Shown piece after piece: positions 1,614 through 32,672 of a stretch of DNA of 64,000 nucleotides. Both the position numbers and the translations under genes were made by a program. The first letter of the stretch is position 1; each line of letters begins with the position of its first letter. Under the pieces are notes generated by a model, which worked only from the letters and a program-made list of their open reading frames with translations, was not told the DNA's origin and ran no database searches. This stretch comes from an uncultured Candidatus Saccharibacteria bacterium (GTDB lineage Bacteria > Patescibacteriota > Minisyncoccia > Phycocordibacterales > Phycocordibacteraceae). The stretch covers positions 36,782 through 100,781 of the forward strand of contig CAYXYP010000001.1 of the NCBI GenBank assembly GCA_964469405.1. The letters are read 5' to 3'.

Positions 1614-2246
1614 ATGATTTCTAACAAGTGGTTGGTACAGGTGGGGATTATAGGGATCATGGCCGTTACTTTCGTAGTAGTGTCGTACGTCGCGCGAGCA
1701 AACGAACCTGTACTTGCTGCCATCGTTCAAGACGGAAATGTCACGAGCATCATTGGCTTCATTCTACTCACTGCACTATTCGTCGTCTTCGTTATTCCGC
1801 TCGACATTGTGTTCCTTATTCCTCTCGGCGCATTAGTGTGGGGACCCGTGCCAACAGCGCTGATGAGCATTATGGGATGGGTTCTCGGGAGCATGGTGGC
1901 ACTCGGTATCGCCCGCGCATTCGGAGCTCCTGTTGTAGAAAAAATGATTGGGCTGAAACGGATACGGGGTATCGAGGCGCGCATACCAAATCAAAACACC
2001 TTTTGGACTGTCGTATTCCTGCGGTTAATAATCCCTGTCGATATTTTAAGCTACGCACTCGGACTTTTTAGCACAATGTCATGGCGCCCGTATATGCTTG
2101 CAACACTGATAGGCGTAACTCCTTTCGGTTTCTATTTCTCCTACGCCGGAACACTTCCGTTTTGGTATCAAATCGCTGCGGTAATCGGCGCACTCGTACT
2201 TGCCACTGCAATCGTATTTAAATACGACGCTCAAGAAAATCCTTAA
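1614..2246 (+). CDS. DedA/TVP38-family integral membrane protein
   Basis: Multi-TM 210-aa protein with DedA-like 'GALVWGPVPTALMSIMGWVLG' core. Confidence 0.5.
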   Translation: MISNKWLVQVGIIGIMAVTFVVVSYVARANEPVLAAIVQDGNVTSIIGFILLTALFVVFVIPLDIVFLIPLGALVWGPVPTALMSIMGWVLGSMVALGIARAFGAPVVEKMIGLKRIRGIEARIPNQNTFWTVVFLRLIIPVDILSYALGLFSTMSWRPYMLATLIGVTPFGFYFSYAGTLPFWYQIAAVIGALVLATAIVFKYDAQENP

Positions 2247-2249
2247 TAT

Positions 2250-2436
2250 TTCTTTAATTCCAACCCACCGTTAACGAAAACGGAAAGCCGCCTCTCGCCG
2301 TGTTCGGCTCGAAACCTACGCTTCCTCTTCGGAAGCTGCGGCACTAAAGTACTGCTGTTTATTAGCCAATCGCTTCGCTCTTGGATAAACAGGGAGCCCG
2401 CGGTTCGATTCCGGCGACACTCGCATAAGTAGCTAA
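2250..2436 (+). other. unassigned structured region containing a degenerate tRNA-like T-arm (GGTTCGATTCC)
   Basis: 'gcccgcggttcgattccggcgacactcgca' at ~2395-2425 resembles the 3' half of the intron-tRNA at 14254-14290, but the T-stem is not fully pairable; a strong terminator follows immediately. Confidence 0.25.
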
Positions 2437-2469
2437 AAATCGCATGGCTTGCACCATGCGATTTTTCGT
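2437..2469. terminator. rho-independent terminator hairpin (bidirectional)
   Basis: Perfect inverted repeat AAAAATCGCATGG-cttgcac-CCATGCGATTTTT, flanked by an A-run and a T-run. Confidence 0.75.
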
Positions 2470-2473
2470 ACTT

Positions 2474-2640
2474 GTTGCCCGAGGCGGTACTGTACCCGTA
2501 CCCATAGGGAGTTACAAGGTTTTTAGGGGACCTTCCTTCCCCCTTAGTCGACGGGGGCCGGTATGGGTCGCTTTCCAATGATTTGAAGGGTTTTCGCTCG
2601 CTTCAGATCGGCCAACTAGGGCGGCGGTACTGTACCCCTC
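2474..2640. repeat. left boundary repeats of the island: GGCGGTACTGTAC (x2) flanking GGGGGCCGGTA
   Basis: GGCGGTACTGTAC at 2483-2495 and 2623-2635; GGGGGCCGGTA at 2553-2563; the same motifs recur at 14196-14229 next to the tRNA 3' end. Confidence 0.5.
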
Positions 2641-2681
2641 AATAGACACGATAGACACTATAAAAAGGGGCGGGAAAGTGT

Positions 2682-3227
2682 CTACTCGATTACCCACTCC
2701 ACCAATCCGAAATTTTCCGGCTCTAGCCCAATATTTAGAGCAGCCGCGAGCCACTCGATTTGAGAATTCTGTATCGCGTCTTTCTTCTGGCGCTTCAATT
2801 CGAGAAATACGGTCTTGCTTCCCTTCCAGACGAGGACGTCCCAGCATCCTCCGAACCGGCCGGTTTGCCTCCTCAGGTCGGAAACGAGATCCGCTTGTTT
2901 AGATGGCAAGTCTACCGGCTCCACGACATCCGGCAGGCCAACTCTATATTTCCTTCGATATGAATCCACCCAGACACCATTCCAGCCATTCGATTGAAAT
3001 AATCGAAGTACCGCGAGTTCTGCAAATACCGGCTCGCCGTTCCAATCGATAACCGCCTTATTGTTGTAGGTGTTCGGGATCGAATCGCCCACCCATTGTT
3101 TGAAGCGTAAAAAATATTTCGGTATTGAAATTTGCTCGCCAGAAGGAAGCGAAAATATTTCGCTATTACTTTTGTAATGCTCTAAAAATCCAAGATCTCC
3201 CGCTTGGTCGGGTTGTATTGTCTGCAT
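2682..3227 (-). CDS. PD-(D/E)xK / VRR-NUC-like nuclease-domain protein
   Basis: C-terminal 'GGCWDVLVW...FLELKRQKKD...Q..WL' matches the VRR-NUC/PD-(D/E)xK pattern (D...E-x-K, Q). Confidence 0.4.
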   Translation of the reverse strand: MQTIQPDQAGDLGFLEHYKSNSEIFSLPSGEQISIPKYFLRFKQWVGDSIPNTYNNKAVIDWNGEPVFAELAVLRLFQSNGWNGVWVDSYRRKYRVGLPDVVEPVDLPSKQADLVSDLRRQTGRFGGCWDVLVWKGSKTVFLELKRQKKDAIQNSQIEWLAAALNIGLEPENFGLVEWVIE

Positions 3228-3708
3228 GACCTGGGAAGGTTTTGTTTGGCGGGAAATACAAAGCTCCCCGCCAGGCGATGGCTTGCGCCACCCACCCCCA
3301 GTTTCCCGGAGGGACCTTCCCAGGTGCTCCTGACGAGGAGCTTTCTACTGGGAAGGATTTGCGTCATGCCGAGTTACCGGTTTAGACATCTTGATAATAA
3401 CGCGAAAGAGCGACCGTTGGCTACCCTAGCTTAGTTTTCGGTGGTTGCGAAGGACCCTGGGGATAACTACTTTAAGCAGCTCCGATTGACAGTGTTGACA
3501 TTCATCGTCTGTTATAAACGCTGATTTAAATATTCAGACTGAGAAAATATCGTGCGCACTGAATTGTCACGAAATGACTCTCAAAATAACTCGCGCAACA
3601 AAACGTCGATGTATACTTACACTAACCAGCGGGCGAGCAACCTATTTAGATACTGCGAGAGATTCCCAGTGTGGAATATTTCGATAGACACCAAACTAGC
3701 AACCGAAA

Positions 3709-5058
3709 ATGTTTATTCGGTTAACGATAAATGTTATGGGGAATCTCAACATAGTGTATGTGCCTATAAGTGAATTGAGACCGTCAGATTATAATCCGCG
3801 AAAATGGAACGAGGCACAGATAGTGGCACTGAAGGAAAGCTTACAGCGTTTTGGTGTTCTAGATCCATTGATATGTAATTCTGCACTCGGGCGTGAAAAT
3901 ATAGTTATTGGTGGACACTTCCGTCTCAAGGTCGCAAAGGATATGGGTCTCAAGGAGATGCCTGTTGTGTACGTGAATATACCGGAGATAGAGCGCGAGA
4001 AAGAATTAAATATCCGATTGAACAAAAACCTCGGAGAATTCGATCTAGCGATTCTTAAGGACTTCGGTGAGAACTTCTTAAAGGATGTGGGATTCGACAC
4101 GATCGAGCTAGACGAGATCTTTGAGGTTGCGACTACACCCGAGCATTTTGACCTTAAGCGCGAGCTGGAAAAACTTAACATCAGCGAGGTGACAATCAAG
4201 AAGGGCGATATGTTCGACTTAGACGGTTCGCGTCTTCGTTGTGGAGACAGCACTATTGAAGCTGACATGCTTGCACTGATGAACGAAGAGAAGGCCGACA
4301 TGTGTTTTACGGACCCACCCTATATTCTTGATTACCTTCGGGGTAAGAAGAAAAACGGCAAGCCAACGGAAGGTTTCGGATTAAAACGCGATCGTAAGTA
4401 TCTCGGAACCGACTCTCTACCCGAGAACTTCTCCGACCTCTGGATGGCGAACGTCGCCAAGGTGCAAAAGCCGGACTTCTCTATCATCGTTTATGAAAAT
4501 CCTAAGAATTTGAGGACTATATGGAACGCCCTTGAAAAACATTGGAAATATCGGAACACTATCGTGTGGCATCTAAGCAACCGCGTACAAGGTTTTTCTG
4601 CCAAGTACAAATTCTTTAGCAAGCACGATATAGCGCTTGTAGGCACCTCAGGCGATGTGACGCTCAATGATGAGCCAGAAGATGACCCGCTGTTCCAGGA
4701 ACAGTACGAGACAGCTCTCTTCGCAACTTCCGGCCATCCTCATTGGGAGGGACCTGGCAAAGGCAAAAAGTATTGCCCTACTGACCACATAGAATTCGTC
4801 GCGGCAGACGAAAAGTCGTCCGGTCAAGGAATAATCTTCGGGACTAAGCCAATAGAAATCCTCCTTCCATATCTGAAGGTGCTTACTAAGCGTGGCGATC
4901 TTGTGCTTGAGCCTTTCGGAGGTAGTGGTTCCACGCTCATCGCCGCCAACAAACTTGGTCGCCGTTGCTATGTGATGGAGAAGAGCGAAGTGTATACCGC
5001 AGTTATCATTGCCCGCTGGGAGAAGACAACCGGAAAAAAGGCGAAGAAAATTTCCTAG
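3709..5058 (+). CDS. ParB-like nuclease domain fused to a DNA methyltransferase (N6A/N4C, beta class)
   Basis: N-terminal ParB/Srx fold ('ISELRPSDYNPRKW...GGHFRL'); 'DPPY' motif IV (FTDPPY) followed by a C-terminal FxGxG SAM motif (EPFGGSGST). Confidence 0.7.
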   Translation: MFIRLTINVMGNLNIVYVPISELRPSDYNPRKWNEAQIVALKESLQRFGVLDPLICNSALGRENIVIGGHFRLKVAKDMGLKEMPVVYVNIPEIEREKELNIRLNKNLGEFDLAILKDFGENFLKDVGFDTIELDEIFEVATTPEHFDLKRELEKLNISEVTIKKGDMFDLDGSRLRCGDSTIEADMLALMNEEKADMCFTDPPYILDYLRGKKKNGKPTEGFGLKRDRKYLGTDSLPENFSDLWMANVAKVQKPDFSIIVYENPKNLRTIWNALEKHWKYRNTIVWHLSNRVQGFSAKYKFFSKHDIALVGTSGDVTLNDEPEDDPLFQEQYETALFATSGHPHWEGPGKGKKYCPTDHIEFVAADEKSSGQGIIFGTKPIEILLPYLKVLTKRGDLVLEPFGGSGSTLIAANKLGRRCYVMEKSEVYTAVIIARWEKTTGKKAKKIS

Positions 5059-5061
5059 CAT

Positions 5062-5709
5062 ATGGCTGGGAAACTTTCCCCGAAGAAGAAACGTCTTGCG
5101 ACCCTTGCCAAGAAGACTGCCGAGCAGAAGGATGCTCTCCTCGAACACCTCGCCAAATGTTGCATCGTGCAGGCCGCGTGCGAACGAACCGGAGTCGGTC
5201 GTTCCACATACTACAAATGGTACGCGGAAGATGATGGGTTCCGCAATGCGGCTGATAAGGCATTCACTGCCGGTCGTGCGTATCTGAATGATGTTGCTAT
5301 ATCAGGACTTCTTAAACTGATACAAGAAGGCAGTGTTGGGGCGACTATCTTCTGGCTCAAGAATAATCATATGTGGTTCGCCGAGAAAATCCGACATGAG
5401 CACGAGCATCGTATCATCGGTGTCGGCGATGGTGTACTTACCCCAGAACAACGCGAGCAACTCATTAAAGCTCAACGTCTCTCGGGCATGACGGCTGCGG
5501 CTATCATCCATGAAGAATTGAAAGAGAAATTCTTGGCAAGTAAGAAGGGCCAGGAAACGGCAAACGATGTTGACAAAAGTCCAACGAACGAGGCACCAGA
5601 TGACGATCGTATCTCAGACTGGGGTACAGGCAAACCGGCGGAGAAATTCAATAAAGAGCTCGAACGCAATGGGATCAATATCCAGGAGTTCTTGAGGAAT
5701 CGTAAATAA
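5062..5709 (+). CDS. phage terminase small-subunit-like HTH protein
   Basis: HTH 'CERTGVGRSTYYKW' and an 'IFWLKNNH' motif typical of phage TerS; sits downstream of the ParB-MTase as in phage packaging modules. Confidence 0.35.
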   Translation: MAGKLSPKKKRLATLAKKTAEQKDALLEHLAKCCIVQAACERTGVGRSTYYKWYAEDDGFRNAADKAFTAGRAYLNDVAISGLLKLIQEGSVGATIFWLKNNHMWFAEKIRHEHEHRIIGVGDGVLTPEQREQLIKAQRLSGMTAAAIIHEELKEKFLASKKGQETANDVDKSPTNEAPDDDRISDWGTGKPAEKFNKELERNGINIQEFLRNRK

Positions 5710-5715
5710 AATGGT

Positions 5716-5996
5716 TTTAATTCCAAGAATGGCCGCCCCCGAAGGAGAGGCCACCGCGAGAGTTATTTATTCCTCTCACGCTCAGTAGTGTCTGGATGTC
5801 TCTTGGCGTACTCTTCAGTACAGAAACGACCAGTGTCACTACGTCGATAGTCGTAGTTTGCCATAGGCAGATTCGATTAGGCTGATAAACCACCATGGAC
5901 ATGCGAAAGGCCGCATGCCCAGTCGTCAAGCAATAGAGGCTTCTCAGCTCCATGATGATTATCAACTCCATCAAGGCGGCCATTCTTGGAATCAAA
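5716..5996. repeat. 19-bp inverted repeat (TTCCAAGAATGGCCGCC) flanking a ~240-bp structured spacer
   Basis: 'ttaattccaagaatggccgcc' at 5716-5737 and its reverse complement 'ggcggccattcttggaatcaa' at 5975-5996. Confidence 0.5.
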
Positions 5997-6070
5997 GAAC
6001 CTATTTATGGTAGCTCATTTTGAGCCATAGTCGTAGACCCTAGCTTAGATACCCAGATTTGCAAAGAAGG

Positions 6071-7708
6071 TCAAAATGCAACCTCCTGGACAACTGTATC
6101 TAATCCCTGGAAATATTCGGACGGAATGTTTGATATTGGGTAGAATTTGAAACTTTTAATATCGGTACTTCCTGCCAAAGTTGCCGAGCCTTGCACAATA
6201 TATCCATCAACAGCATCCGTCTGCTCCGATATAACCGGCCCTCCACTCATACCGCTCCACATAGGGTTATTAACTAGATAGGCATGTATCCCTCCGGTTA
6301 CTTCCTTTTGTACAATATTCTGATCAACTGCTGCCGGTTCGCTCCAGAAATTTCCGTTGGACCTGAATCCTCCGTATCCCAAAGATACGTAGTCTTCTGT
6401 TTGACTATAACTATGATGAGTCTTTTTAGTGTTGGATTTAAAGATCAGGTCCGAATTGTCAGAAGCAGTGTACAAGACTGCAAAGTCTTTCACGACATCT
6501 CGACAGAGAACAGAAGCGCCCCTGAATTCAACTGGCAATCTTTTGTCTCGAGTAGTGAATTCGACACTCCCATCTTCCCCAACAACATGAGCGCAGGTGA
6601 CGATGGTGTTCTTGCTTATAAAAAAGCCACTACCGATTCCCTGAGTTGATTTGATGATTAGAACCTTGTTTAGATATTCCTCCTTCTTAGATTCTGGCAA
6701 TCTTTCCCCAAATTTCCCTTCCAAGTCACAGAGACGATTGAACAGCTTTCTATACAAGAGGTCTGTCTTATCTCTTACGTTGCCGATATGATCAATTCTG
6801 CCCCTAAGAACCTGTCGGAAGCTTTTTTTGAGACCTGAATTGTAACTATCATTAAACTTCTTCTCCGCTCCTTCTTCACCATAAACTTCCCAGGCATTAA
6901 GCATAGAACGAACATCTCTTATGTATTTTCGAGAAAGATTGCACTTCTTATTGACCTTAATTCCTGTAACCCACTTGCTTTGGTTTGGTACCGCTAAACG
7001 GGTCTTTTTTTGATTAATTGTAAAACCATTTGATTCTATTGTATTAACAATAGCCCTCCCGACAGTAACTGCACCTCCAACATTCGAGGCAAGTTTATTG
7101 TCTAGGCTATTTGCCGAAAATGTTATGTCATCCGCATAACGCGAATATCGCCAACCATTTTTATGTGCCAACCTGATTAGATCCTTGTCTAACCTTAGAC
7201 AAACCATGTTCGCAATAACAGGTGATGTAGGAGAACCCTGAGGTAAACAATTATCGCGTGTTGTGATTCCAGTCAGTACAGAAGATAGTTTATTTCCAAA
7301 ACGAAACGGATACCGTTTAAAAAGACCCATTACTCTTCCGGAGTTCACCACTCCAAAAAAGTCATTCAAATCAATATTTAATACGTAGTTTCTCTGGAGA
7401 TGGTTTTGAGCATTTGTAACAATCCCTCTACCATTAACAAACCCGTGAGCGGATTTTGGCAAAAACTCCTCGTATACGCTACCCAGATAGTAATTGAGTT
7501 TCTTACAGATAGTCTTTAATGCCTTATCTGGGGCATAAATATCTCTGTGCCCTCCCGTTTTTTTAGGAATCGTATAGTGCTTGTATAAAGATTCGTTGTT
7601 ATATGCAAAATAGAGGAGCGTCTCTAAATCAAGATCCAACAAATCTGCGAGATCTCTTATGTTTCCACAATCTCTAATATCTCTATCGGATTTGATGGTT
7701 GAAATCAT
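6071..7708 (-). CDS. retron-type reverse transcriptase fused to a C-terminal trypsin-like (S1) serine protease
   Basis: RT motifs: IPKKTGGHRDI, NIDLNDFF, LPQGSPTSPVIAN, YSRYADDITFS, and the retron-specific VTG (SKWVTGIKV). Protease motifs: TCAHVV (His) and GMSGGPV (Ser, GDSGGP-like). Confidence 0.8.
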   Translation of the reverse strand: MISTIKSDRDIRDCGNIRDLADLLDLDLETLLYFAYNNESLYKHYTIPKKTGGHRDIYAPDKALKTICKKLNYYLGSVYEEFLPKSAHGFVNGRGIVTNAQNHLQRNYVLNIDLNDFFGVVNSGRVMGLFKRYPFRFGNKLSSVLTGITTRDNCLPQGSPTSPVIANMVCLRLDKDLIRLAHKNGWRYSRYADDITFSANSLDNKLASNVGGAVTVGRAIVNTIESNGFTINQKKTRLAVPNQSKWVTGIKVNKKCNLSRKYIRDVRSMLNAWEVYGEEGAEKKFNDSYNSGLKKSFRQVLRGRIDHIGNVRDKTDLLYRKLFNRLCDLEGKFGERLPESKKEEYLNKVLIIKSTQGIGSGFFISKNTIVTCAHVVGEDGSVEFTTRDKRLPVEFRGASVLCRDVVKDFAVLYTASDNSDLIFKSNTKKTHHSYSQTEDYVSLGYGGFRSNGNFWSEPAAVDQNIVQKEVTGGIHAYLVNNPMWSGMSGGPVISEQTDAVDGYIVQGSATLAGSTDIKSFKFYPISNIPSEYFQGLDTVVQEVAF

Positions 7709-7847
7709 TCACTAATACACAAGCCTTCTTATCCTCGACCGCTAAATGCGGAACAACTTAACAACTTATGACACAGGGAGTATCCCCCTAACAACGTCAC
7801 AGCTCGTTGCTGTAACACAACGAAAAAATCGCTTGTGCATTAGTGAA
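7708..7847 (-). ncRNA. candidate retron msr/msd-like ncRNA bounded by a1/a2 inverted repeats
   Basis: 16-nt inverted repeats at 7708-7723 and 7832-7847 (15/16 Watson-Crick, one G.U). a1 ends in G, a2 abuts the RT start codon, and the inner 108 nt contain short hairpins. Confidence 0.3.
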
Positions 7848-7940
7848 TGCCTTCAAACCGAGGTAATAATAGCGCAAAATTGTCTGCAACGCTCAGAAAG
7901 TATCCGAGACGATTCGCTCGGGACCATTCAGACTGTGCAT

Positions 7941-8690
7941 TTAGTTTAGTTTTTGAAAAATAAAGAGGTGCTCATGCATTATCAATAAAAAGTTTGATTC
8001 CTTCGATCTGGTGACCCAGAAACCAGTTGCTTTGCAATTAAATTGTCGTTTAATAATATCCTCTTTCAGGACGAAACCTACTTTCAAGAATCGTTCCATT
8101 ACCTTAAAAGCGAGAGGTTGATACATTTTTTGTCTTCGAGTATCTCCCATCAAAATGGCACAGTATTTCCCAGGCCTTAAAACTCTATGGAGTTCTTTTG
8201 CAACCTTCTCTATTTCATCAACAAAAGCATCTATATCGTGTATTCCCGACAGGTCTTCTTCTATTTTGCCCTCGCTGTATTTGATGATGTCTGCATAAGG
8301 AGGGTGCGTGAGTACAAAATCAATTTCATTGTCTTTAATGAAGCTCATATTTCTCGCATCACACTTCACCACTCGTTGTTTCGCTTTATTGTCGACCTCA
8401 AATTCAAGTGATTTTCTTGTTCTTTCTAACGCTTCTTCATTCACATCAATGCAAGTGATATGACGATTAAGTATCTTTGCCTCTATTGCTGTAGTACCTC
8501 CTCCAATCATGCAGTCCAGCAAATGATCTTTTTCATTTGAGTACCGTAAAATAAGATTGCGGACGACCTCTGGTGCCCAATTTCCGCGCCAATCTGATTT
8601 ATGCGTCGCCCAGTTTCCACGACGCGGGAATGCCCATACGGTTGTACACTCTAGTTCAAATTCGTCAGGGTGTAATTTCTTTTCCACCAT
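7941..8690 (-). CDS. DNA methyltransferase (motif I GGGT then HPPY), DpnA/M.MboIC-like second MTase of an R-M system
   Basis: 'LDCMIGGGTT' SAM motif and 'HPPY' catalytic motif; 249 aa; adjacent to an REase and a Dam-like MTase. Confidence 0.6.
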   Translation of the reverse strand: MVEKKLHPDEFELECTTVWAFPRRGNWATHKSDWRGNWAPEVVRNLILRYSNEKDHLLDCMIGGGTTAIEAKILNRHITCIDVNEEALERTRKSLEFEVDNKAKQRVVKCDARNMSFIKDNEIDFVLTHPPYADIIKYSEGKIEEDLSGIHDIDAFVDEIEKVAKELHRVLRPGKYCAILMGDTRRQKMYQPLAFKVMERFLKVGFVLKEDIIKRQFNCKATGFWVTRSKESNFLLIMHEHLFIFQKLN

Positions 8691-8694
8691 ATAA

Positions 8695-9552
8695 TTACCA
8701 TACGAGCTTACCTAAAACTCCTGCTTCGAGCATGTTGAGATTAAATACATACTCGTTGTGATTGTATGTTTCTTCAAGAGGTCTCTTTGTAGTGTACCAA
8801 CCCAACCCATCAGTTATCCAAATAAAATCAATATTTTGAGCTTTCAGCTCATCATAAAGACTTCTGAATTCACCACACACGGCCTTCAGTTTTGAGCCAC
8901 CACCGTTATAAAAATTAGTTTCAAACAGTTTGATACTTTTATTCGTTGGGTTGTACACTGCAAAATCAAAACTTCGCTCTGATTTATCTATTTTCACGTC
9001 AACGCCCCACTTACTTTTTATGGCTGTAGAACGTGCTTGTGGCAAATACTCATAACCATTCTTGTTACAAAAATCACTTATGAATTCCCCTACAATCTCT
9101 TCCATCAGTGTGCCACCACGATTCTTACGGCCATTACTATCAAGACCGACCTCAACACCCATAACGTAGTCCACAAGATTCTTAACTCCATCCTTTTGGA
9201 ATAGTCGTGCGAGGCCAGATTTGTTGAGGAATTCAAAATACTTTGCTGGGTCTTTTTCTGTACCTGAGAAATCAAAGAACTCAGAATTCTTCGCAGCTTT
9301 ATCGAACACCTCGAGTTTATTCTCTCGTACGGCCAAAAGTACTGGCAGTGCCTTCACAATATCTGGGTTAGAACTATAGAGTTTCTTGAATTCGTCTTCC
9401 AGATTCTCTTTTCCGAGAAGATAATTGAGTTTATTGAGAGTTATCTCTAGATCAGAGCTATTCGCAAAGACCTTCTTCCAATTCACAAAATAGTCCCACG
9501 TCTTGATTGAACTCTTAAAAGTTGTGATGAGATTATTGAAGTCTTTGTCCAT
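8695..9552 (-). CDS. type II restriction endonuclease, probably DpnII/MboI family (GATC), inferred mainly from context
   Basis: 285-aa ORF sandwiched between a Dam-like MTase and a DpnA-like MTase, matching the DpnII/MboI/LlaDCHI cassette architecture. Confidence 0.45.
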   Translation of the reverse strand: MDKDFNNLITTFKSSIKTWDYFVNWKKVFANSSDLEITLNKLNYLLGKENLEDEFKKLYSSNPDIVKALPVLLAVRENKLEVFDKAAKNSEFFDFSGTEKDPAKYFEFLNKSGLARLFQKDGVKNLVDYVMGVEVGLDSNGRKNRGGTLMEEIVGEFISDFCNKNGYEYLPQARSTAIKSKWGVDVKIDKSERSFDFAVYNPTNKSIKLFETNFYNGGGSKLKAVCGEFRSLYDELKAQNIDFIWITDGLGWYTTKRPLEETYNHNEYVFNLNMLEAGVLGKLVW

Positions 9553-9556
9553 AGTA

Positions 9557-10513
9557 TTAATAATTAGTCACCAGCACTTCCTTAATCTTCCCTCTTCCAG
9601 ACCCTTTTGAATTAATCGCCCGCCCAGCTTCTACTTTAGAGATTCGAACTCCCTTGAATCCGGAATAAATGCCATTGATGAATGGTGCGTCAGAATTTGA
9701 GAGCATCACGAAACATCCTCTGTTACTCAATTCAAGAAAAATATCACGCAGTTCCCACTGATCCTTTTCGGAAAAGCCATTGGACGTATATGAAGTAAAT
9801 GTCGCTGTTTTACTTACAGGATGATACGGTGGATCGAAGTACACAAAATCCCCCTTCTTTGCCTTCTTTAGAACTTGTTTGTAGTCCTGATGCTTTATCT
9901 CAACGTTTTTGAGTGCTCCTGAAATCTTCCGAAGATTCTCTTCGTCGCAGATTTTTGGATTCTTGCTGTAGCCAAAGGGCACATTAAATTCGCCTCGACT
10001 ATTCACACGGTACATGCCATTGAAGCCCGCGCGATTGAGATAGATGAAACGTGAAGCTACTTGAAGCGGAGAAAGTTTCTCTACTTTTTGTGCGCGTACC
10101 TTTAGAAAATACTCTTTACTATGAGCATGCTTCTTAAGCGCCTTAATGAGACTCTCTACATCGTTTTTTATTACGTTGTACGTTGTAACGAGCTCGAAAT
10201 TGAGATCAGAGAGAAATGCTTTTTTAGGAAACAGATCAAAGAATACAGCTCCTCCGCCGACGAATGGCTCAAAGTATTGGTCCTTGGTAGAGTCGAATTT
10301 CTCTGGTGGATAAAGGTTCATCAATCTGAACTGTCTGAGAAGCTGTCGCTTCCCTCCGACCCATTTTACAAACGGTTTCGGTTTTTCTTCTATTATTTTT
10401 GCGGCCTCATTTATGAAATCTTTAGAGGAGGTTAGACCGTAGACATTACGCGCATAAATGGCATTTATATCAAATTCCTGCTGTATCTTTCTGACTGCCT
10501 CAGCCGTGGTCAT
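9557..10513 (-). CDS. dam: Dam-family (D12 class) N6-adenine DNA methyltransferase
   Basis: 'VKWVGGKRQLL' and 'YFDPPY' motifs characteristic of Dam/DpnM. Confidence 0.75.
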   Translation of the reverse strand: MTTAEAVRKIQQEFDINAIYARNVYGLTSSKDFINEAAKIIEEKPKPFVKWVGGKRQLLRQFRLMNLYPPEKFDSTKDQYFEPFVGGGAVFFDLFPKKAFLSDLNFELVTTYNVIKNDVESLIKALKKHAHSKEYFLKVRAQKVEKLSPLQVASRFIYLNRAGFNGMYRVNSRGEFNVPFGYSKNPKICDEENLRKISGALKNVEIKHQDYKQVLKKAKKGDFVYFDPPYHPVSKTATFTSYTSNGFSEKDQWELRDIFLELSNRGCFVMLSNSDAPFINGIYSGFKGVRISKVEAGRAINSKGSGRGKIKEVLVTNY

Positions 10514-10650
10514 ACACTAATACTTTAGCATTCTTGATGGATTTTGAAGCATTAGTTACCAACTCATCGAGCCTATAGGGCGGTCTGGACTCCCTGCGCG
10601 GGTTGCGTCATCCATTGTGGTAGGGCGAATTAGCAAGTAACCACAATGCA

Positions 10651-11988
10651 ATGAATAAGGCGGTATTTGAGGGTACAGACAGGGTTCTGGGGCTTAAACC
10701 AGAGGCCAAGGAGGCGGTAAAGGTGCGGTATTGCCTCTATGCCAGAAAGAGCACTGAACAGGACGAGATGCAGGCGCTCTCAATCGATTCGCAGATAAAG
10801 GAGATGACTGCACTCGCGGCTCGCGAAGACCTCGAAATTGTAGTGATTAAAAAGGAAAGCCATTCGGCGAAAGAGGCCAGCCAGCGGCCAGTCTTTAACG
10901 AGATGATCGACGAGATGCGCGCCGGTAAGTTCAACGGCATCCTGACCTGGGCGGCAGATCGTATTAGCCGCAATGCAGGCGACCTCGGGAGAGTCGTCGA
11001 TATGATGGACGCTGGAGTGCTCGTGCAGATACAGACGTATAGTCAGAAATTCTCGAACAATCCCAATGAGAAATTCCTGCTGATGATCCTCTGCTCGCAG
11101 GCGAAGCTCGAGAACGACAACAAAAGCATCAACGTGAAGCGCGGCCTACGCACACGCGCAGAGATGGGCATGCTCCCCGGCTGGGCTCCGGTCGGATATC
11201 TTAATGACACGCGGTCAGACCACAAATGCGAATATCTGCTCGACCCGATACGCTCCCCTATCGTGAAGCTTATCTTCGAAAAGGTCGGCAAAGAACGGTG
11301 GAGCGGAGTGAAGATATATCACTGGTTGCGAGAGGAAGTGAAGTTCACGACAAGAAGCGGGAAGAATATGAGTATCGGTACTCTCTACGAACTATTGAAA
11401 AACCCATTTTATTGCGGCGTCTTCGAGTATCCACGCGGGAGTGGCAATTGGTATGTCGGTAAGCACGAAGCGCTCATTACACGAGAACTCTTCGAGTTGG
11501 TACGCGAAAAGATCGTGTCAGAATCGAATCCAAAAAAACGAACGGGCGAATTTGCCTTCACTCGCCTGATGACTTGCAGCGAGTGCGGCTCTGGCGTCAC
11601 TTGCATGGATAAAGAGAAATTCGTAAAGATGCTCGGGACGACAAAGATTTACAGATATTACTTATGCACTCGAGCCCAAGACCGGCGATGTAAGAATCCG
11701 TACATTCGTGAGGATAATCTCATAGAACAACTCTCCGAAATCATCGATGGGATCGAGATAGACCGCCTTGGCGCGCGACACCTTATAGATAAAGAGGTCG
11801 CCAGATTCAACAAACTACGCTCACAGGTGCTAGGCGTAAAAGAGAAAGAAAAGGCACTCGAGATGGACGTGAAGCGTTATGCAAGATACCTGCTCGAGGA
11901 AGGCACTATCGAAGAAAAGCGACAGTTGCTTGAGCAGTTGCGCGGCAAGATCGTACTGAAAGATAAAGAAATCACGCTTTCAAATTAA
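10651..11988 (+). CDS. large serine recombinase (resolvase catalytic domain + recombinase domain + zinc ribbon)
   Basis: 'YARKSTEQ' catalytic Ser motif; C-terminal Cys-rich ribbon (CSECGSG...CTRAQDRRC); 445 aa. Confidence 0.7.
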   Translation: MNKAVFEGTDRVLGLKPEAKEAVKVRYCLYARKSTEQDEMQALSIDSQIKEMTALAAREDLEIVVIKKESHSAKEASQRPVFNEMIDEMRAGKFNGILTWAADRISRNAGDLGRVVDMMDAGVLVQIQTYSQKFSNNPNEKFLLMILCSQAKLENDNKSINVKRGLRTRAEMGMLPGWAPVGYLNDTRSDHKCEYLLDPIRSPIVKLIFEKVGKERWSGVKIYHWLREEVKFTTRSGKNMSIGTLYELLKNPFYCGVFEYPRGSGNWYVGKHEALITRELFELVREKIVSESNPKKRTGEFAFTRLMTCSECGSGVTCMDKEKFVKMLGTTKIYRYYLCTRAQDRRCKNPYIREDNLIEQLSEIIDGIEIDRLGARHLIDKEVARFNKLRSQVLGVKEKEKALEMDVKRYARYLLEEGTIEEKRQLLEQLRGKIVLKDKEITLSN

Positions 11989-12483
11989 ACGAGCACTCAT
12001 AAGTTGAATAGATAACGCCTGATCACTCACTCGATACAGACGAGCAAGTGTTGGAATATCAGGAGAGGATTTATAGTCTTTCTTGAGAATTATTTTCGGC
12101 ATGAGGAGCTCGGCAGCAAAAACATTCGCTTCGGTTTCGTCATGCGATCCATCATCCTGTCTACCGGTGCAAGCATGACCCAAAAGTAAGTGGCCTATTT
12201 CATGAGCGATTGTGAAGCGACGACGACACCAGGGATGATTGCCATTAAACCCGATAGTTGCGTATTCACCGTCAACATCTTTGCAGGATACGAGCAACCC
12301 AGAGACTTTACTGCTGGCTTCAACACGGAGCACGGTTAGATTATGCTCGATTTGCAGGTATTCGATGACCTGTTGCAACGAGACGGGCGCATTTTTTATT
12401 TGTGCGTCCTTAACCAGTTTCTGCGCTAGTGTTATCGCCAGCTTTTTCCGCGCACCCAAATCTGGCAAATCATCGTACATTTG
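11980..12483 (-). CDS. ImmA/IrrE-family zinc metallopeptidase (anti-repressor protease)
   Basis: HEXXH 'AHEIGHLLLGH'; overlaps the end of an upstream XRE regulator as in ImmR/ImmA modules. Start estimated at the internal Met (MYDD...). Confidence 0.6.
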   Translation of the reverse strand, partial: QMYDDLPDLGARKKLAITLAQKLVKDAQIKNAPVSLQQVIEYLQIEHNLTVLRVEASSKVSGLLVSCKDVDGEYATIGFNGNHPWCRRRFTIAHEIGHLLLGHACTGRQDDGSHDETEANVFAAELLMPKIILKKDYKSSPDIPTLARLYRVSDQALSIQLMSARLI

Positions 12484-12814
12484 GCCTGCGCTTCGCAAGA
12501 TTAATGAAGCGAGAGAGTGCGTCTTTATCCTCCTTACTGAGATCTGGGTCGGCGCGAAGAGCCACTTGAATATCGACGGGAGCATCCTCTTTCTGGCCGA
12601 GAAAAAATTTCACATCTCGCTGAAGTACTTCGCTCACACGCTGCAAAAGTGCGGCTGGGATACCTCGTTCACCCTTTTCAATCAAAGAGATGGCTGTTGC
12701 TGACTGGAAGCCGAGCGCTTCAGCCAACTCGGTCTGTGATAAATTCCTCTCCTCCCGGACTGCCTTTATCCTAGAGCCCATCGTATTGGCGCTTTTTCCT
12801 TCCTTTTTTATCAT
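12470..12814 (-). CDS. XRE-family helix-turn-helix transcriptional regulator
   Basis: 'LSQTELAEALGFQSATAISLIEKGER' HTH_XRE signature. Confidence 0.75.
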   Translation of the reverse strand: MIKKEGKSANTMGSRIKAVREERNLSQTELAEALGFQSATAISLIEKGERGIPAALLQRVSEVLQRDVKFFLGQKEDAPVDIQVALRADPDLSKEDKDALSRFINLAKRRPNVR

Positions 12815-12845
12815 ATTCTAATTATAGACTTTTCAATTAGTATTG

Positions 12846-12875
12846 ACAACAGCTTACCGATTTTGCTAAAATGGA
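12846..12875 (+). promoter_or_regulatory. sigma70-like promoter (TTGACA-18-TAAAAT) for the + strand cargo genes, divergent from the XRE gene
   Basis: 'TTGACAacagcttaccgattttgcTAAAAT' ~45 nt upstream of the 12920 start. Confidence 0.35.
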
Positions 12876-12919
12876 TTTAGCGTTCTGAAAAACGCCCTTA
12901 CAAAATCACCCGTCAAGCC

Positions 12920-13192
12920 ATGTTTACATACCTAGTCTCATACGACCTCATCCGCCCCCACAAAGATTATCCGAACCTCATCGCTTACATGAAGACCTTC
13001 AGCTCTTGGTCAAAGCCACTTGAGTCAGTCTGGCTAATTAAGAGTAGTGCTGGTGTCGAGCAGGTTCGCAATTCGATCCAGGTACATATGGACAGCAACG
13101 ACAAAATTCTGGTCGTTGACGTCACCAGCAGAGCTGCCGCTTGGGACAAACTCCCCGCGGAGGTTAGCACCTGGATCCATAGTTCATTATAA
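12920..13192 (+). CDS. hypothetical 90-aa protein (island cargo)
   Basis: ORF with no recognisable motifs. Confidence 0.4.
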   Translation: MFTYLVSYDLIRPHKDYPNLIAYMKTFSSWSKPLESVWLIKSSAGVEQVRNSIQVHMDSNDKILVVDVTSRAAAWDKLPAEVSTWIHSSL

Positions 13193-13208
13193 CCGAACGC
13201 GTACTACT

Positions 13209-14138
13209 ATGATCATCAAACAGAAGAGGATTCATAAACTTGAACCGTACACCCGTCTGATACCGACCGGGGACGACCTTGTGGTCGGTGTAGCAAGTCC
13301 CGCAGGGGACCGTCTCCGCGCCATCGGATTTTCTAACGCCCTTGAGAACGGCGAGACTGTGCTGCCTACACCAGTGGGACACACCAGCCTGTTCAATGCG
13401 GAGGGGAAAAATAAAATTAACCGCGACTTACCGAAGGAAACCCTATATCGCACCGCCGAGTGGACATGGACTGAGCTCCACGGAAAGGACCGCGTTGAGC
13501 GGACTGCCTTCGTTGACATACCCTACCAACGCTATCCACGTATACCTATTCCACCTCCGTCTATGGAGCTCGTTCTCGCGACAGATGCGGACGGAGTTCG
13601 CGTCGTAAGAACATCTATCATCAAGAATTGGAAAACCAGTCCTGATTCAGTAATTCACGCAGTGAACCTGATGCTTGAGCTGTTTGGTGAGTGTTTGTTC
13701 TACGATGCAGAAATGAAGCGTCTCATTGCCGCGCCAGTAAAGCGCTTGACCTGGAATCTACTTCCACCCGGAAGACGTCCATTCGCTGCCCTTAAGGCGA
13801 AGCTTGCCGAAGTACTCGCTGACGTGAAGACCGGTAAGCTATCGTTTACCGAACATCGCTTGGAGACAGTAAATGCGTATAAGCCAGACTTTGCGGCCGT
13901 TGGTAATGGCGGGTTTCGTGGCTACGTAGTGCTTGGCTTCGTAGATCGCAATCTGTATGTATTAGAGAGCTTACTGTATGGGAATGCGACTTATGTCTTT
14001 GAAGAGAACTGGGAAAACCTCTCAAAGAAGACGAAGGCAGAGATCCTTGATAAGCGACTTCAGAAAGAGCGTCTCGTTCATCATAAGAACTGGGCAGTCG
14101 ATGTTGCTTCGCTCTTGAAAATCGAGACGTCAAAATAG
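13209..14138 (+). CDS. hypothetical ~310-aa protein (island cargo); start estimated at internal Met (MIIKQKR...)
   Basis: Long ORF 13047..14138; no recognisable domain; terminator hairpin follows. Confidence 0.4.
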   Translation: MIIKQKRIHKLEPYTRLIPTGDDLVVGVASPAGDRLRAIGFSNALENGETVLPTPVGHTSLFNAEGKNKINRDLPKETLYRTAEWTWTELHGKDRVERTAFVDIPYQRYPRIPIPPPSMELVLATDADGVRVVRTSIIKNWKTSPDSVIHAVNLMLELFGECLFYDAEMKRLIAAPVKRLTWNLLPPGRRPFAALKAKLAEVLADVKTGKLSFTEHRLETVNAYKPDFAAVGNGGFRGYVVLGFVDRNLYVLESLLYGNATYVFEENWENLSKKTKAEILDKRLQKERLVHHKNWAVDVASLLKIETSK

Positions 14139-14150
14139 TACTAGCAACAA

Positions 14151-14184
14151 ACGCAGAAGCCGCTCTTTCGAGCGGCTTCTGCGT
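14151..14184. terminator. perfect hairpin terminator (ACGCAGAAGCCGCTC-tttc-GAGCGGCTTCTGCGT)
   Basis: 15-bp perfect inverted repeat, T-rich on the minus strand after it; downstream of both the cargo gene (+) and the tRNA (-). Confidence 0.6.
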
Positions 14185-14189
14185 ACGTG

Positions 14190-14252
14190 ATGCCTGGCGG
14201 TACTGTACTGGTCCCAATGGGGGCCGGTACTGGTTCCTGGCGTCACAACCGT
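14190..14252. repeat. right-boundary repeats: GGCGGTACTGTAC and GGGGGCCGGTA, the latter a partial copy of the tRNA 3' end
   Basis: 14196-14208 and 14219-14229; GGGGGCCGG is identical to the + strand image of the tRNA T-stem/acceptor junction at 14258-14266. Confidence 0.5.
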
Positions 14253-14253
14253 G

Positions 14254-14542
14254 TTGCGGGGGCCGGAATCGAACCGGCGTCTGGAGGTTATGCTTACCAC
14301 TACAATTTTCATTGCCCTATAGTTTGTGGTCTGGACTATGCCTTCATCCGTCAACTTGCCGGATGTCTACCGTCTAGTCTCTACACCTTCCGAGTGACAA
14401 CCATCACAGGGCTTGGCTCGGTGTTGCCCTTCGTTATTCATGAGAGGGGTTCGCCGAATTTGGCAGATAATCTTGCGCGCAATTACTCACGCGTACGCCC
14501 GAATTTTTCAAGCCTCCCGAGGTACCTCTCCTCTACCCCGCA
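14254..14542 (-). tRNA. tRNA (anticodon most likely CAU: Met or Ile2) split by a ~218-nt group I intron in the anticodon loop; no encoded CCA
   Basis: Exon 1 (14542 to ~14511) folds as acceptor UGCGGGG, D-arm GAGG/CCUC, anticodon stem GGAGG + CU. Exon 2 (~14292 to 14254) gives CAUAA + CCUCC, var loop, T-arm GCCGG-UUCGAUU-CCGGC, acceptor CCCCGCA. Only the CU|...G|CAUAA split obeys the exon-U / intron-omegaG rule. Confidence 0.7.
14293..14510 (-). other. group I (IC3-like) self-splicing intron within the tRNA
   Basis: Core elements on the minus strand: P-like AAUUGCGCG, 'CAAAUUCGGCGAA', 'GCAACACCGAGCCAAGC', R 'GGUGUAGAGACUAGACGG' and S 'AUAGUCC' (P7 pairing GACUA/UAGUC). Close resemblance to bacterial tRNA group I introns (Azoarcus/cyanobacterial type). 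Confidence 0.6.
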
Positions 14543-32579: not shown

Positions 32580-32672
32580 GGAGGGGGAGGGATTCGAACC
32601 GCGGGCCGCAGGTCTCGAAGAGAGACCGTAGGTTTCGAGCACAGCAGTGCGAGAGGCGAATCCCTCCCCCCG
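32580..32672. repeat. inverted copy of the tRNA-Ser 3' end plus a degenerate direct copy; not a foldable tRNA
   Basis: 'GGAGGGGGAGGGATTCGAACC' (32580-32600) is the exact reverse complement of the tRNA-Ser 3' 21 nt; 'CGAGAGGCGAATCCCTCCCCCC' (32651-32672) is a degenerate direct copy. Confidence 0.6.

Follow-up and report, generated by a model that had tools for sequence, protein, structure and literature searches.

A probable serine-recombinase integrative element with defence cargo at the 3′ end of a tRNA-Met gene in Patescibacteria

Introduction

Patescibacteria (the Candidate Phyla Radiation, CPR) make up a large share of bacterial diversity, and their mobile elements and genetics are poorly known. 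The locus described here raises the question of how a block of accessory genes came to lie against a tRNA gene in the genome of one of them, an ultra-small groundwater bacterium, and which enzyme put it there. The block lies in a window of 64,000 nt, the whole stretch of DNA that we analysed (contig CAYXYP010000001.1 of assembly GCA_964469405.1, positions 36,782 to 100,781), between a DedA gene and a tRNA-Met(CAU) gene. The 3′ ends of tRNA genes are the textbook target of tyrosine integrases, and a preliminary description, made from the sequence alone, had read the block as a mobile island with defence cargo bearing the classic footprint of integration at a tRNA, namely partial duplications of that tRNA at both ends. 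We conclude that positions 2479-14257 very probably form a single integrative element of about 11.78 kb, a member of a family widespread in Patescibacteria (Paceibacteria, in Kaiser- and Adlerbacteria-like genomes), which a large serine recombinase (LSR) probably integrated at the 3′ end of the tRNA-Met(CAU) gene.

Results

Unoccupied sites fix both ends of the island

We sought unoccupied sites through homologues of o192, a conserved neighbour of the tRNA gene, and found two, L043 and L044. In L043, GatA, o192, tRNA-Met, a terminator, DedA and a 2-Hacid_dh gene stand together with nothing inserted (...gct-TGTTGC-gggggccgg), and in both sites the terminator on the DedA side continues into the tRNA through the hexamer TGTTGC. 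In window orientation the empty site reads ...tttcgtttgct-TGTTGC-gggggccggaattgaacc, the left junction of the island (attL) ...tttttcgtact-TGTTGC(2473-2478)-ccgaggcggtactgtacc and the right junction (attR) ...gtcacaaccg-TGTTGC(14252-14257)-gggggccggaatcgaacc. Three-way alignment with L043 shows that the identity common to both junctions is TGTTGC only, four of its six nucleotides belonging to the tRNA, and that 11,779 bp lie between the two cores. The tRNA-Met gene stays intact at the insertion site; it has no encoded CCA, and its discriminator A73 is at 14254.

The two motifs that mark the ends of the element, a 13-mer and the P arm that abuts the right core (Table 1), are absent from L043, from L044 and from otherwise occupied sites, so the island is 2479-14257 and the repeats on which the preliminary description had relied are all internal to the element. 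Its central claim, that a mobile island bearing defence genes is integrated at the 3′ end of a tRNA gene with an intron, is confirmed, and the ends that it had proposed, 2474 and 14262, fall within a few bases of the junction cores. It had also suggested that an empty tRNA site be sought; L043 and L044 supply one and define the chromosomal site (attB) with TGTTGC as its core. The predicted junction of the element site (attP) is ...TGGCGTCACAACCGTGTTGCCCGAGGCGGTACTGTACC... and that of attB is ...GCGATTTTTCGTACTTGTTGCGGGGGCCGGAATCGAACC....

A serine recombinase gene stands beside the tRNA 3′ end throughout a family of elements

The island encodes an intact LSR in which PF00239, PF07508 and PF13408 all score above their cut-offs and a YARKS34TEQ motif holds the presumed nucleophilic serine; its best named relatives are CcrB and XisF, both far below the family cut-offs, and SPbeta SprA. 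No open reading frame (ORF) in 2479-14257 matches PF00589, the tyrosine integrase family. A scan of one genome per species gave 18 loci with relatives of this LSR, 17 of them in metagenome-assembled genomes (MAGs) of Patescibacteria; the exception, L042, is 37% identical and comes from a gammaproteobacterial MAG. Twenty related loci, all but L042 patescibacterial, have the LSR gene beside a tRNA 3′ end (Met, Arg, Ile or Glu). In the window, in an alternative strain described below and in 10 of the 18 loci, the LSR gene lies 5′ of the 3′ end of a minus-strand tRNA-Met(CAU) gene. More distant members abut other tRNAs, with 130 nt from the LSR stop codon to tRNA-Arg-CCT, 111 nt to tRNA-Ile-TAT and 135 nt to tRNA-Glu-TTC, and tRNA-Glu-CTC is used as well. 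LSR identity is uncoupled from that of the host protein GatA (in L033, for example, the LSR is 95% and GatA 77% identical). We infer that the LSR is the enzyme responsible for integration.

The ends of the element carry long conserved blocks

The 13-mer, GGCGGTACTGTAC, occurs exactly at 2483, 2623 and 14196 and has no other copy in the 64 kb with up to two mismatches (0.73 expected by chance), while GGGGGCCGGTA lies at 2553 and 14219, with a one-mismatch copy inside the tRNA at 14258. These are the positions that the preliminary description had given, and the possibility that the motifs are a dispersed repeat of the repetitive extragenic palindromic (REP) kind was checked: every copy in the retrieved loci lies at an end of an element of this family. 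Left ends from nine independent elements were compared in an alignment: those of the window and the alternative strain, two of L026, and five on JGI metagenome contigs that were retrieved with the predicted attP junction. In all nine contexts TGTTGC is followed by a left block of about 160 nt, which runs from the core through a 13-mer, about 57 nt, GGGGG.CGGTAT and about 58 nt to a second 13-mer. The motifs and their 70-nt spacing are invariant, the spacers split into two diverged sub-families, and homology among the nine stops right after the second 13-mer (2635).

The right block, about 100 nt long in modules of the Met type, consists of a terminator, ACGTGATGCC, CGGTACTGTAC, about 10 nt, GGGG..CGGTACTGGTTCCTGGCGTCACAACCG and TGTTGC, and what follows it is the tRNA, a pseudo-tRNA fragment or CCG.G.CGGTACTGTACCCG. 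The window and the alternative strain diverge exactly at 14197/98, inside the right 13-mer. In L032 a diverged right block abuts a tRNA-Arg gene, which indicates that the block travels with the element. In two metagenomic relatives, L121 (~150-205) and L079 (~5760-5811), the P arm holds a 32-nt insertion between GGTTCC and TGGCGT, so that only the last ~20 nt before the core keep a fixed distance from it.

The left block has no RNA covariation on either strand; we therefore rejected a structured RNA, and a role of its motifs in protein binding at the DNA level is more likely. The first 13-mer shares its register with the T-arm stem of the tRNA in attB (G.CGG, 7 nt, CC.G at +5 to +21), and we take its position, +5 to +17 after the core, to be the probable P′ half-site, the other T-arm-like motifs (+75 and +145 on the left, -56 and -33 on the right) being putative accessory protein-binding sites. 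The claim that the repeats are attL/attR-type partial copies of the tRNA did not hold up: they are element-internal, the junctions share 6 bp only, and the resemblance of the motifs to the tRNA is marginal, with gapped-alignment P values of 0.011 and 0.044 and a left-end match of 16/26 that equals background. A tRNA mimic at the left ends was also rejected: neither in the window nor in the elements at tRNA-Arg, tRNA-Ile and tRNA-Glu does the match rise above background.

A conserved core carries exchangeable payloads

Comparison across the family divides the element into core and cargo (Table 1). The conserved core consists of the left block, a LOOT RNA, a ParB-methyltransferase (MTase) fusion, a TerS-like helix-turn-helix (HTH) protein, the LSR and the right block. 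L033 represents the minimal core, with a homologue of the 181-aa ORF, LOOT, ParB-MTase, the TerS-like gene directly 5′ of the recombinase gene and about 70 nt between these last two, which identifies the retron and DpnII block of the window as payload. Payloads occupy three slots: between the TerS-like gene and the LSR gene (a type XI retron and a DpnII-type restriction-modification (R-M) cassette), after the LSR gene (an XRE/ImmA pair and two ORFs) and on the left (a possible nuclease). The retron and R-M cargo has a GC content of 38-41%, against 46-53% around it.

Among the core genes, the full-length ParB-MTase architecture recurs in 268 phage records. In a structural model of the TerS-like protein the N-terminal 110 residues have a pLDDT of about 90, and the best fold matches are phBC6A51 (PDB 2ao9), Sf6 TerS and viral TerS models, with weak scores; together with the PHROGs matches this backs the earlier TerS-like call, which holds at the level of the predicted fold family. 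Pfam likewise bears out the calls of ParB-MTase, of a DpnII endonuclease with two MTases, of the LSR, and of the M78/ImmA and XRE proteins. The PD-(D/E)xK-like call for the 181-aa ORF stands less firmly, on a sub-threshold VRR-NUC match and a D...ELK motif; a homologue 70% identical to it occupies the same place in L033.

The retron reverse transcriptase (RT)-protease proposed earlier proved to be of type XI. It combines PF00078 and PF13365 and carries the motifs NAQNH99, YADD191, VTG247 and, in the protease part, GMSG486. The 230 nt 5′ of the RT gene contain a long stem in the layout expected of an msr-msd, a candidate suggested by its 35-nt inverted-repeat arms (7699-7733 and 7822-7856) and by the predicted fold of 7690-7945(-), at -90.7 kcal/mol (z = -5.8). 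The R-M cassette is assigned to the DpnII type by its Pfam families and has the gene order M-R-M, different from the order dpnM-dpnA-dpnB of Streptococcus pneumoniae. A cassette whose proteins are 85-95% identical adjoins the recombinase gene in L026, which has no retron. The 309-363-aa ORF at the right end of the cargo has no match in Pfam, PHROGs, PADLOC, NCBIfam or PDB. Where the core meets the cargo, the 92-aa ORF is enclosed exactly by an inverted repeat (5716-5737 and 5975-5996; perfect over 17 nt, 95% over 22 nt) that has no further copy in the window and keeps one orientation in nine of nine contigs of this island type; it could be a cargo-insertion scar, a miniature inverted-repeat transposable element or an invertible segment.

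LOOT is an orphan RNA motif from candidate phyla, named after Latescibacteria, OD1, OP11 and TM7. It is present in 11 of the LSR-family loci that we examined (the window, the alternative strain, represented by L019, and the nine others listed in Table 1), always on the strand opposite to the LSR gene and upstream of it, and it also occurs in L045 (13726-13856), in a tyrosine-integrase element at the same tRNA. LOOT is accordingly a recurrent component of integrative elements at tRNA genes, of both the serine- and the tyrosine-recombinase types. We considered whether it is the 5′ leader of a conserved gene and rejected this, since the ORFs downstream of it are unrelated across the 11 loci and thus not one gene family that it could lead; LOOT seems to be an RNA in its own right that travels on the element. 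We found no published statement of this context, and the main text of the paper that described LOOT is silent on it.

Related islands replace one another and stack at the same tRNA

The window matches metagenome contigs from the Hainich aquifer (0.1 and 0.2 µm filter fractions) at 100% identity. An alternative strain, Hain_H41_02um_R3_182 (L019 and L009), has flanks 99.6-99.8% identical to those of the window. Its DedA gene and tRNA, the same two as in the window, enclose another island of this family, with a 306-aa ORF, a Type ISP R-M system, a LOOT RNA, ParB and MTase encoded by separate genes, a TerS-like gene, an LSR gene and a 645-aa ORF, after which a YibE_F/FUR/Zip module follows. The LSRs of the two islands are 95% identical in protein and 84% in DNA, which points to old, separately acquired lineages under purifying selection that did not diverge in place.

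Tandem arrays occur in the alternative strain, L026, L031, L033 and L128. Some of the stacked modules lack an LSR gene; they have the same right-end block and start with a pseudo-tRNA 3′ fragment that matches the tRNA at 19-23 of 26 nt (20/26 in the alternative strain, 23/26 in L033, 19/26 in L031). Examples are the YibE_F/FUR/Zip module (metal homeostasis) of the alternative strain and L031, a 1.5-kb remnant in L026 and a 2.2-kb module in L128, and the modules at L009 6879-9558 (alternative strain), L031 16987-20049, L033 13030-15294 and L128 222-2420 separate a recombinase element from the tRNA. Such modules may be cassettes that are mobilised in trans, or decayed elements. Stacked modules meet at junctions of the attP type (P arm, TGTTGC, left block) in L026 and also in six contigs from metagenomes; no such contig is circular. 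By analogy, this stacking resembles the accretion of SCCmec cassettes at rlmH. The preliminary description had suspected a nested extra copy and more than one event in the window itself, which holds a single element; stacks occur in relatives.

The target tRNA, its intron and the left flank

The tRNA-Met gene is interrupted by a group I intron between U33 and C34, with exons at 14511-14542 and 14254-14292 as placed by alignment to the intron-less orthologue in L041. The earlier claim of an intron-containing tRNA is thus correct: ARAGORN misses the unspliced gene and accepts the spliced exons as tRNA-Met(CAT), and Rfam scores the intron (14300-14519, minus strand) at 48.3 bits, just below its gathering score of 50, with orthologous introns at 51-66 bits. 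The family targets tRNA-Met orthologues both with and without an intron. The intron is present in the window, L027, L028, L031, L034, L045 and L047 and absent from L025, L026, L033, L040, L041, L043 and L044, a patchiness which indicates that it is itself mobile or frequently lost in these bacteria. The same intron-containing tRNA-Met is occupied in another patescibacterial genome (L045/L046, 9039-13856) by a tyrosine-integrase (PF00589) element without the 13-mer and P-arm blocks, so the hotspot is used by two recombinase classes.

On the other side of the island, the DNA 3′ of the DedA gene (~2290-2470, plus strand) resembles a non-coding RNA: GGTTCGATTCC within it is T-arm-like, a strong terminator occupies 2435-2467, its fold reaches z = -3.8, and Rfam gave no match. 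About 100 nt of it are near-identical in the empty site L043 despite o192 being only 70% identical there. Within it, 2289-2342 (54 nt) resembles an inverted copy at 32605-32658 beside a tRNA-Ser gene. A tmRNA or tRNA at 2260-2430 was rejected, with nothing found there by ARAGORN or Rfam and the tmRNA of the genome located at L019 1788-2195; 2260-2430 belongs to conserved host sequence and recurs at the empty site.

Table 1. Positions of features in and around the island (window coordinates), and of LOOT RNAs in related loci (coordinates of each locus)
Feature	Position	Strand	Evidence
DedA/VTT gene, left flank	1614-2246	+	gene/domain call
attL core TGTTGC (crossover region)	2473-2478	+	three-way comparison of empty site L043, attL and attR
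Left-end block: 13-mer GGCGGTACTGTAC (2483-2495), GGGGGCCGGTAT (2553-2564), 13-mer (2623-2635), 70-nt spacing	2479-2635	+	invariant in 9 independent elements
181-aa ORF, possible VRR-NUC / PD-(D/E)xK-like nuclease (weak)	2682-3227	-	Pfam VRR_NUC E=0.13, residues 122-162
LOOT RNA (RF03000)	3277-3388	-	67 bits vs gathering score 46.4, full-length match
ParB-N domain fused to N6/N4 DNA MTase	3709-5058	+	Pfam; phrog_498 5.5e-77
phBC6A51/Sf6-type terminase-small-subunit-like HTH protein (TerS-like), 215 aa	5062-5709	+	five terS PHROGs, best 1.6e-7
92-aa ORF at core/cargo seam	5716-5996	-	bracketed by 17-22-nt inverted repeat; weak holin-like match E=0.024
Type XI retron RT fused to trypsin-like protease	6071-7708	-	PADLOC RT-Protease_XI, 467 bits, full length
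Candidate retron msr-msd non-coding RNA, 35-nt a1/a2-like inverted repeats	7699-7856	-	inverted repeat and fold
DpnII-type R-M cassette	7941-10513	-	Pfam
N6/N4 MTase of the cassette	7941-8690	-	PF01555, 80 bits
DpnII endonuclease of the cassette	8695-9552	-	PF04556, 316 bits
D12 Dam-like MTase of the cassette	9557-10513	-	PF02086, 216 bits
LSR, 445 aa	10651-11988	+	Resolvase, Recombinase and Zn_ribbon_recom domains
ImmA-like M78 peptidase (11980-12480/12585) and XRE HTH regulator (12470-12814)	11980-12814	-	Pfam; gene calls on L010
90-aa phrog_1090 protein	12920-13192	+	phrog_1090 5e-25, phage family of unknown function
ORF, 309-363 aa	ending at 14138	+	no match
Right-end block: terminator (14151-14184), ACGTGATGCC (14185-14194), 13-mer (14196-14208), GGGGGCCGGTAC (14219-14230), P arm GGTACTGGTTCCTGGCGTCACAACCG (14226-14251)	14151-14251	+	at the tRNA-proximal end of every Met-type module
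attR core TGTTGC, overlapping last 4 nt of tRNA (GCAA, ending at A73)	14252-14257	+	same three-way comparison
tRNA-Met(CAU) with 218-nt group I intron (14293-14510)	14254-14542	-	alignment to intron-less orthologue, ARAGORN, Rfam
gatA, gatC, ligA, right flank	beyond tRNA		gene calls
LOOT RNA in relatives	L019 16749-16887; L026 4344-4462; L031 3832-3972; L033 7520-7632; L034 4011-4133; L035 1279-1401; L036 9696-9815; L038 2701-2824; L041 2064-2181; L121 3735-3869

Discussion

The model that we favour is that the LSR would have joined a circular form of the element to the chromosome by recombining an element site, attP (...GGTACTGGTTCCTGGCGTCACAACCG-TGTTGC-CCGAGGCGGTACTGTACC...), with a chromosomal site, attB (terminator-...TTCGT..CT-TGTTGC-GGGGGCCGGAATCGAACC...), at the extreme 3′ end of tRNA-Met(CAU). 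Exchange would take place inside the 6-bp core and would leave the mature tRNA unchanged, altering the 3′ trailer only beyond 2 nt, and the island would act as a site-specific carrier through which anti-phage systems are exchanged at a tRNA hotspot. Several observations weigh against this model. The relative that supplies the empty site is a different species (o192 70% identical) and not a member of the same population. Dyad symmetry around TGTTGC is not significant (best 10/22 for attP and 9/22 for attB over about 10 centres, with a background of 5.5 ± 2.1), which is atypical for serine integrases; the left half-sites of B and P look unrelated; and the conserved motifs reach about 160 nt on one side, far past a canonical 50-bp attP. 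The breaks in homology at the 13-mers (2635 and 14197/98) hint that the 13-mers may themselves be recombination points. Neither an excised circle nor an attP-only contig was found in the JGI metagenomes that we queried with a 17-mer of the predicted attP junction: among the 80 of 120 matches examined, six were genuine attP-type junctions, all in tandem arrays without terminal overlap. No recombination directionality factor was identified. Three independent Logan contigs stop at window position 2502 and one ENA contig at 2457 (L005, L006, L007 and L024), within ~25 nt of the attL core, where divergence between the window and the alternative strain offers no explanation (the first single-nucleotide difference is at 2528); these stops may reflect a third haplotype or a junction in the population.

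Two other explanations place the exchange elsewhere within the end sequences. The one implied by the preliminary description is a classic tRNA island, in which an integrase exchanged strands within a long segment of identity, the 13-mer and GGGGGCCGG repeats are tRNA duplications in attL and attR, and a nested second event left the extra copy. The repeats do recur, directly oriented, at either end, a 9-nt segment of the tRNA matches GGGGGCCGG exactly, and true pseudo-tRNA 3′ fragments exist at module junctions in the alternative strain, L033 and L031. We nevertheless regard this explanation as extremely improbable, because the empty sites lack the repeats, which therefore arrived with the element, because the identity at the junctions is 6 bp and the resemblance to the tRNA is as marginal as described above, because the island has no tyrosine recombinase, and because the motifs are invariant across hosts, as decaying duplicates would not be; the footprint is of a serine-recombinase type. 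Alternatively, the near-palindromic 13-mer (CGGTAC-T-GTAC) could be the real exchange site, with the 160-nt left and 60-nt right blocks forming a landing pad at the tRNA and payloads, the LSR gene included, being exchanged between the inner 13-mers at 2623 and 14196. This would account for the homology of nine elements ending exactly past the second 13-mer and for the split between the two strains at 14197/98, and reconstruction of attB across the 13-mer yields dyad symmetry of a modest degree (14/26; outer 21 nt, P about 0.02). Beta-type blocks beside LSR-less modules resemble unsplit sites. Such a frame without payload, its blocks joined by a single 13-mer, appears in none of about 25 loci, however, and the empty chromosomal sites have no frame at all; the elements at tRNA-Arg, tRNA-Ile and tRNA-Glu abut the tRNA with a gap of 111-135 nt after the LSR stop codon, and the least variable 32 nt, which separate the 13-mer from the tRNA, are too distant for a half-site centred on the 13-mer. 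We rejected a crossover within the 13-mer as contradicted by the empty sites and the tRNA-Arg element, and judge this arrangement quite improbable.

The remaining alternatives concern the present life of the element. It could be a phage satellite of the kind of phage-inducible chromosomal islands (PICIs), or a prophage remnant, that spreads with the help of a phage whose packaging the TerS-like protein redirects and uses the LSR for integration only. The TerS-like gene is a conserved core gene adjoining the LSR gene, ParB-MTase is common in temperate phages near packaging modules, the cargo includes phrog_1090 and an XRE/ImmA switch, and 6.5-12 kb is a typical satellite size. Capsid, portal, TerL, primase and replication genes are nevertheless absent by Pfam, PHROGs and NCBIfam, and IMG/VR and GenBank phages yielded no relatives of the P-arm pattern, of the recombinase protein or of the ParB-MTase/TerS DNA; the phBC6A51 HTH fold is found in plain DNA-binding proteins as well, and the XRE/ImmA pair is cargo, absent from L033 and L041, and not core. 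The phage-type genes and the serine recombinase of the preliminary description are thus borne out; its reading as a prophage remnant or satellite we consider unlikely. Or the island might be a fossil, integrated once and now immobile, with strains differing through homologous recombination of flanking DNA, for which the conserved 200-nt left and 60-nt right blocks could act as homology arms and with which the lack of a circular form agrees. Every ORF is intact, though, that of the LSR included; purifying selection on the LSR is strong, its phylogeny is uncoupled from that of the hosts, and members of the family have moved from one tRNA to another. This reading seems rather unlikely to us. Integration by the LSR within TGTTGC at the tRNA-Met 3′ end remains the account that we prefer. 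An extension of it, speculative and in our judgement doubtful, is that this recombinase family, spread across Patescibacteria, uses a complex, arm-type att site not known for serine integrases: the T-arm and acceptor end of the tRNA would serve as one half-site, and the T-arm-like motifs, at 70-nt spacing on the left and two more on the right, would be needed as accessory sites to which the recombinase, the ParB domain or the HTH protein of TerS type binds. Such a design could allow both the switching of tRNA targets (Met, Arg, Ile, Glu) and the SCC-like stacking of recombinase-less cassettes, with LOOT as an element-encoded regulator of the life cycle.

How does this element compare with known systems? 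Known serine-integrase sites are about 40-50 bp long, have imperfect dyad symmetry and usually lie in protein genes. The island shares with serine-integrase elements (phiC31, Bxb1, TP901-1, SPbeta SprA, XisF) the resolvase, recombinase and zinc-ribbon domains followed by a C-terminal helical region, the short core identity and, in minimal members, an integrase gene beside the att site (59 nt from stop codon to 13-mer in L041), but differs from them in sites without detectable symmetry, in ~100-160 nt conserved per side and in its use of the 3′ ends of tRNAs of several specificities. With the islands, prophages and integrative and conjugative elements that tyrosine integrases insert at tRNA genes it has in common insertion at an intact tRNA 3′ end and a hotspot with alternative occupants, whereas it lacks a tyrosine integrase and shares 6 bp where theirs duplicate 15-50 bp of the tRNA. 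It is like PICIs and other satellites in its small size, integrase, TerS-like gene, XRE/ImmA-type switch and defence cargo, and unlike them in having a serine integrase and no replication module, capsid-remodelling genes or evidence of a helper phage. Its retron is a full-length match to type XI, with NAxxH and VTG motifs, a trypsin-like domain fused to the RT and, 5′ of the gene, a predicted structured RNA in which long inverted repeats occur; we see no structural difference, and what is notable is the patescibacterial host and the carriage as cargo of a recombinase element. SCCmec-type cassettes, which are moved by the large serine recombinases CcrA, CcrB and CcrC, form tandem, defence-carrying arrays at the 3′ end of rlmH (PMC11470126). 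As in SCCmec, an LSR, here one whose best NCBIfam match is CcrB, inserts the element at the very 3′ end of a conserved housekeeping gene and leaves that gene undisrupted, and tandem cassettes with anti-phage cargo, some of them without a recombinase, are bounded by the same short site. In contrast to SCCmec, the target is a tRNA gene and not a protein gene, the host belongs to the Patescibacteria, the LSR scores far below the Ccr cut-offs (110 vs 900 bits), and the element has long end blocks with repeated T-arm-like motifs, a LOOT RNA, a ParB-MTase and a TerS-like gene.

The locus thus extends kinds of element already known, namely serine-recombinase integrative elements, SCC-like arrays and defence-carrying tRNA hotspots, and overturns no current concept; its extended end-motif architecture and its LOOT RNA are two unexplained features. 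It defines at base resolution a family of serine-recombinase elements in Patescibacteria, for which attP is predicted and the 3′ end of tRNA-Met provides a universal attB, and this predicted attP/attB pair is a candidate integration tool for these bacteria. Serine recombinases acting at the 3′ ends of at least four types of tRNA have chosen an unusual target, and at one such hotspot tiny genomes swap a type XI retron, a DpnII R-M system and a Type ISP R-M system. The placement of LOOT on integrative elements narrows the hypotheses for its function and, if its reading as a regulator is true, would give this RNA its first functional context.

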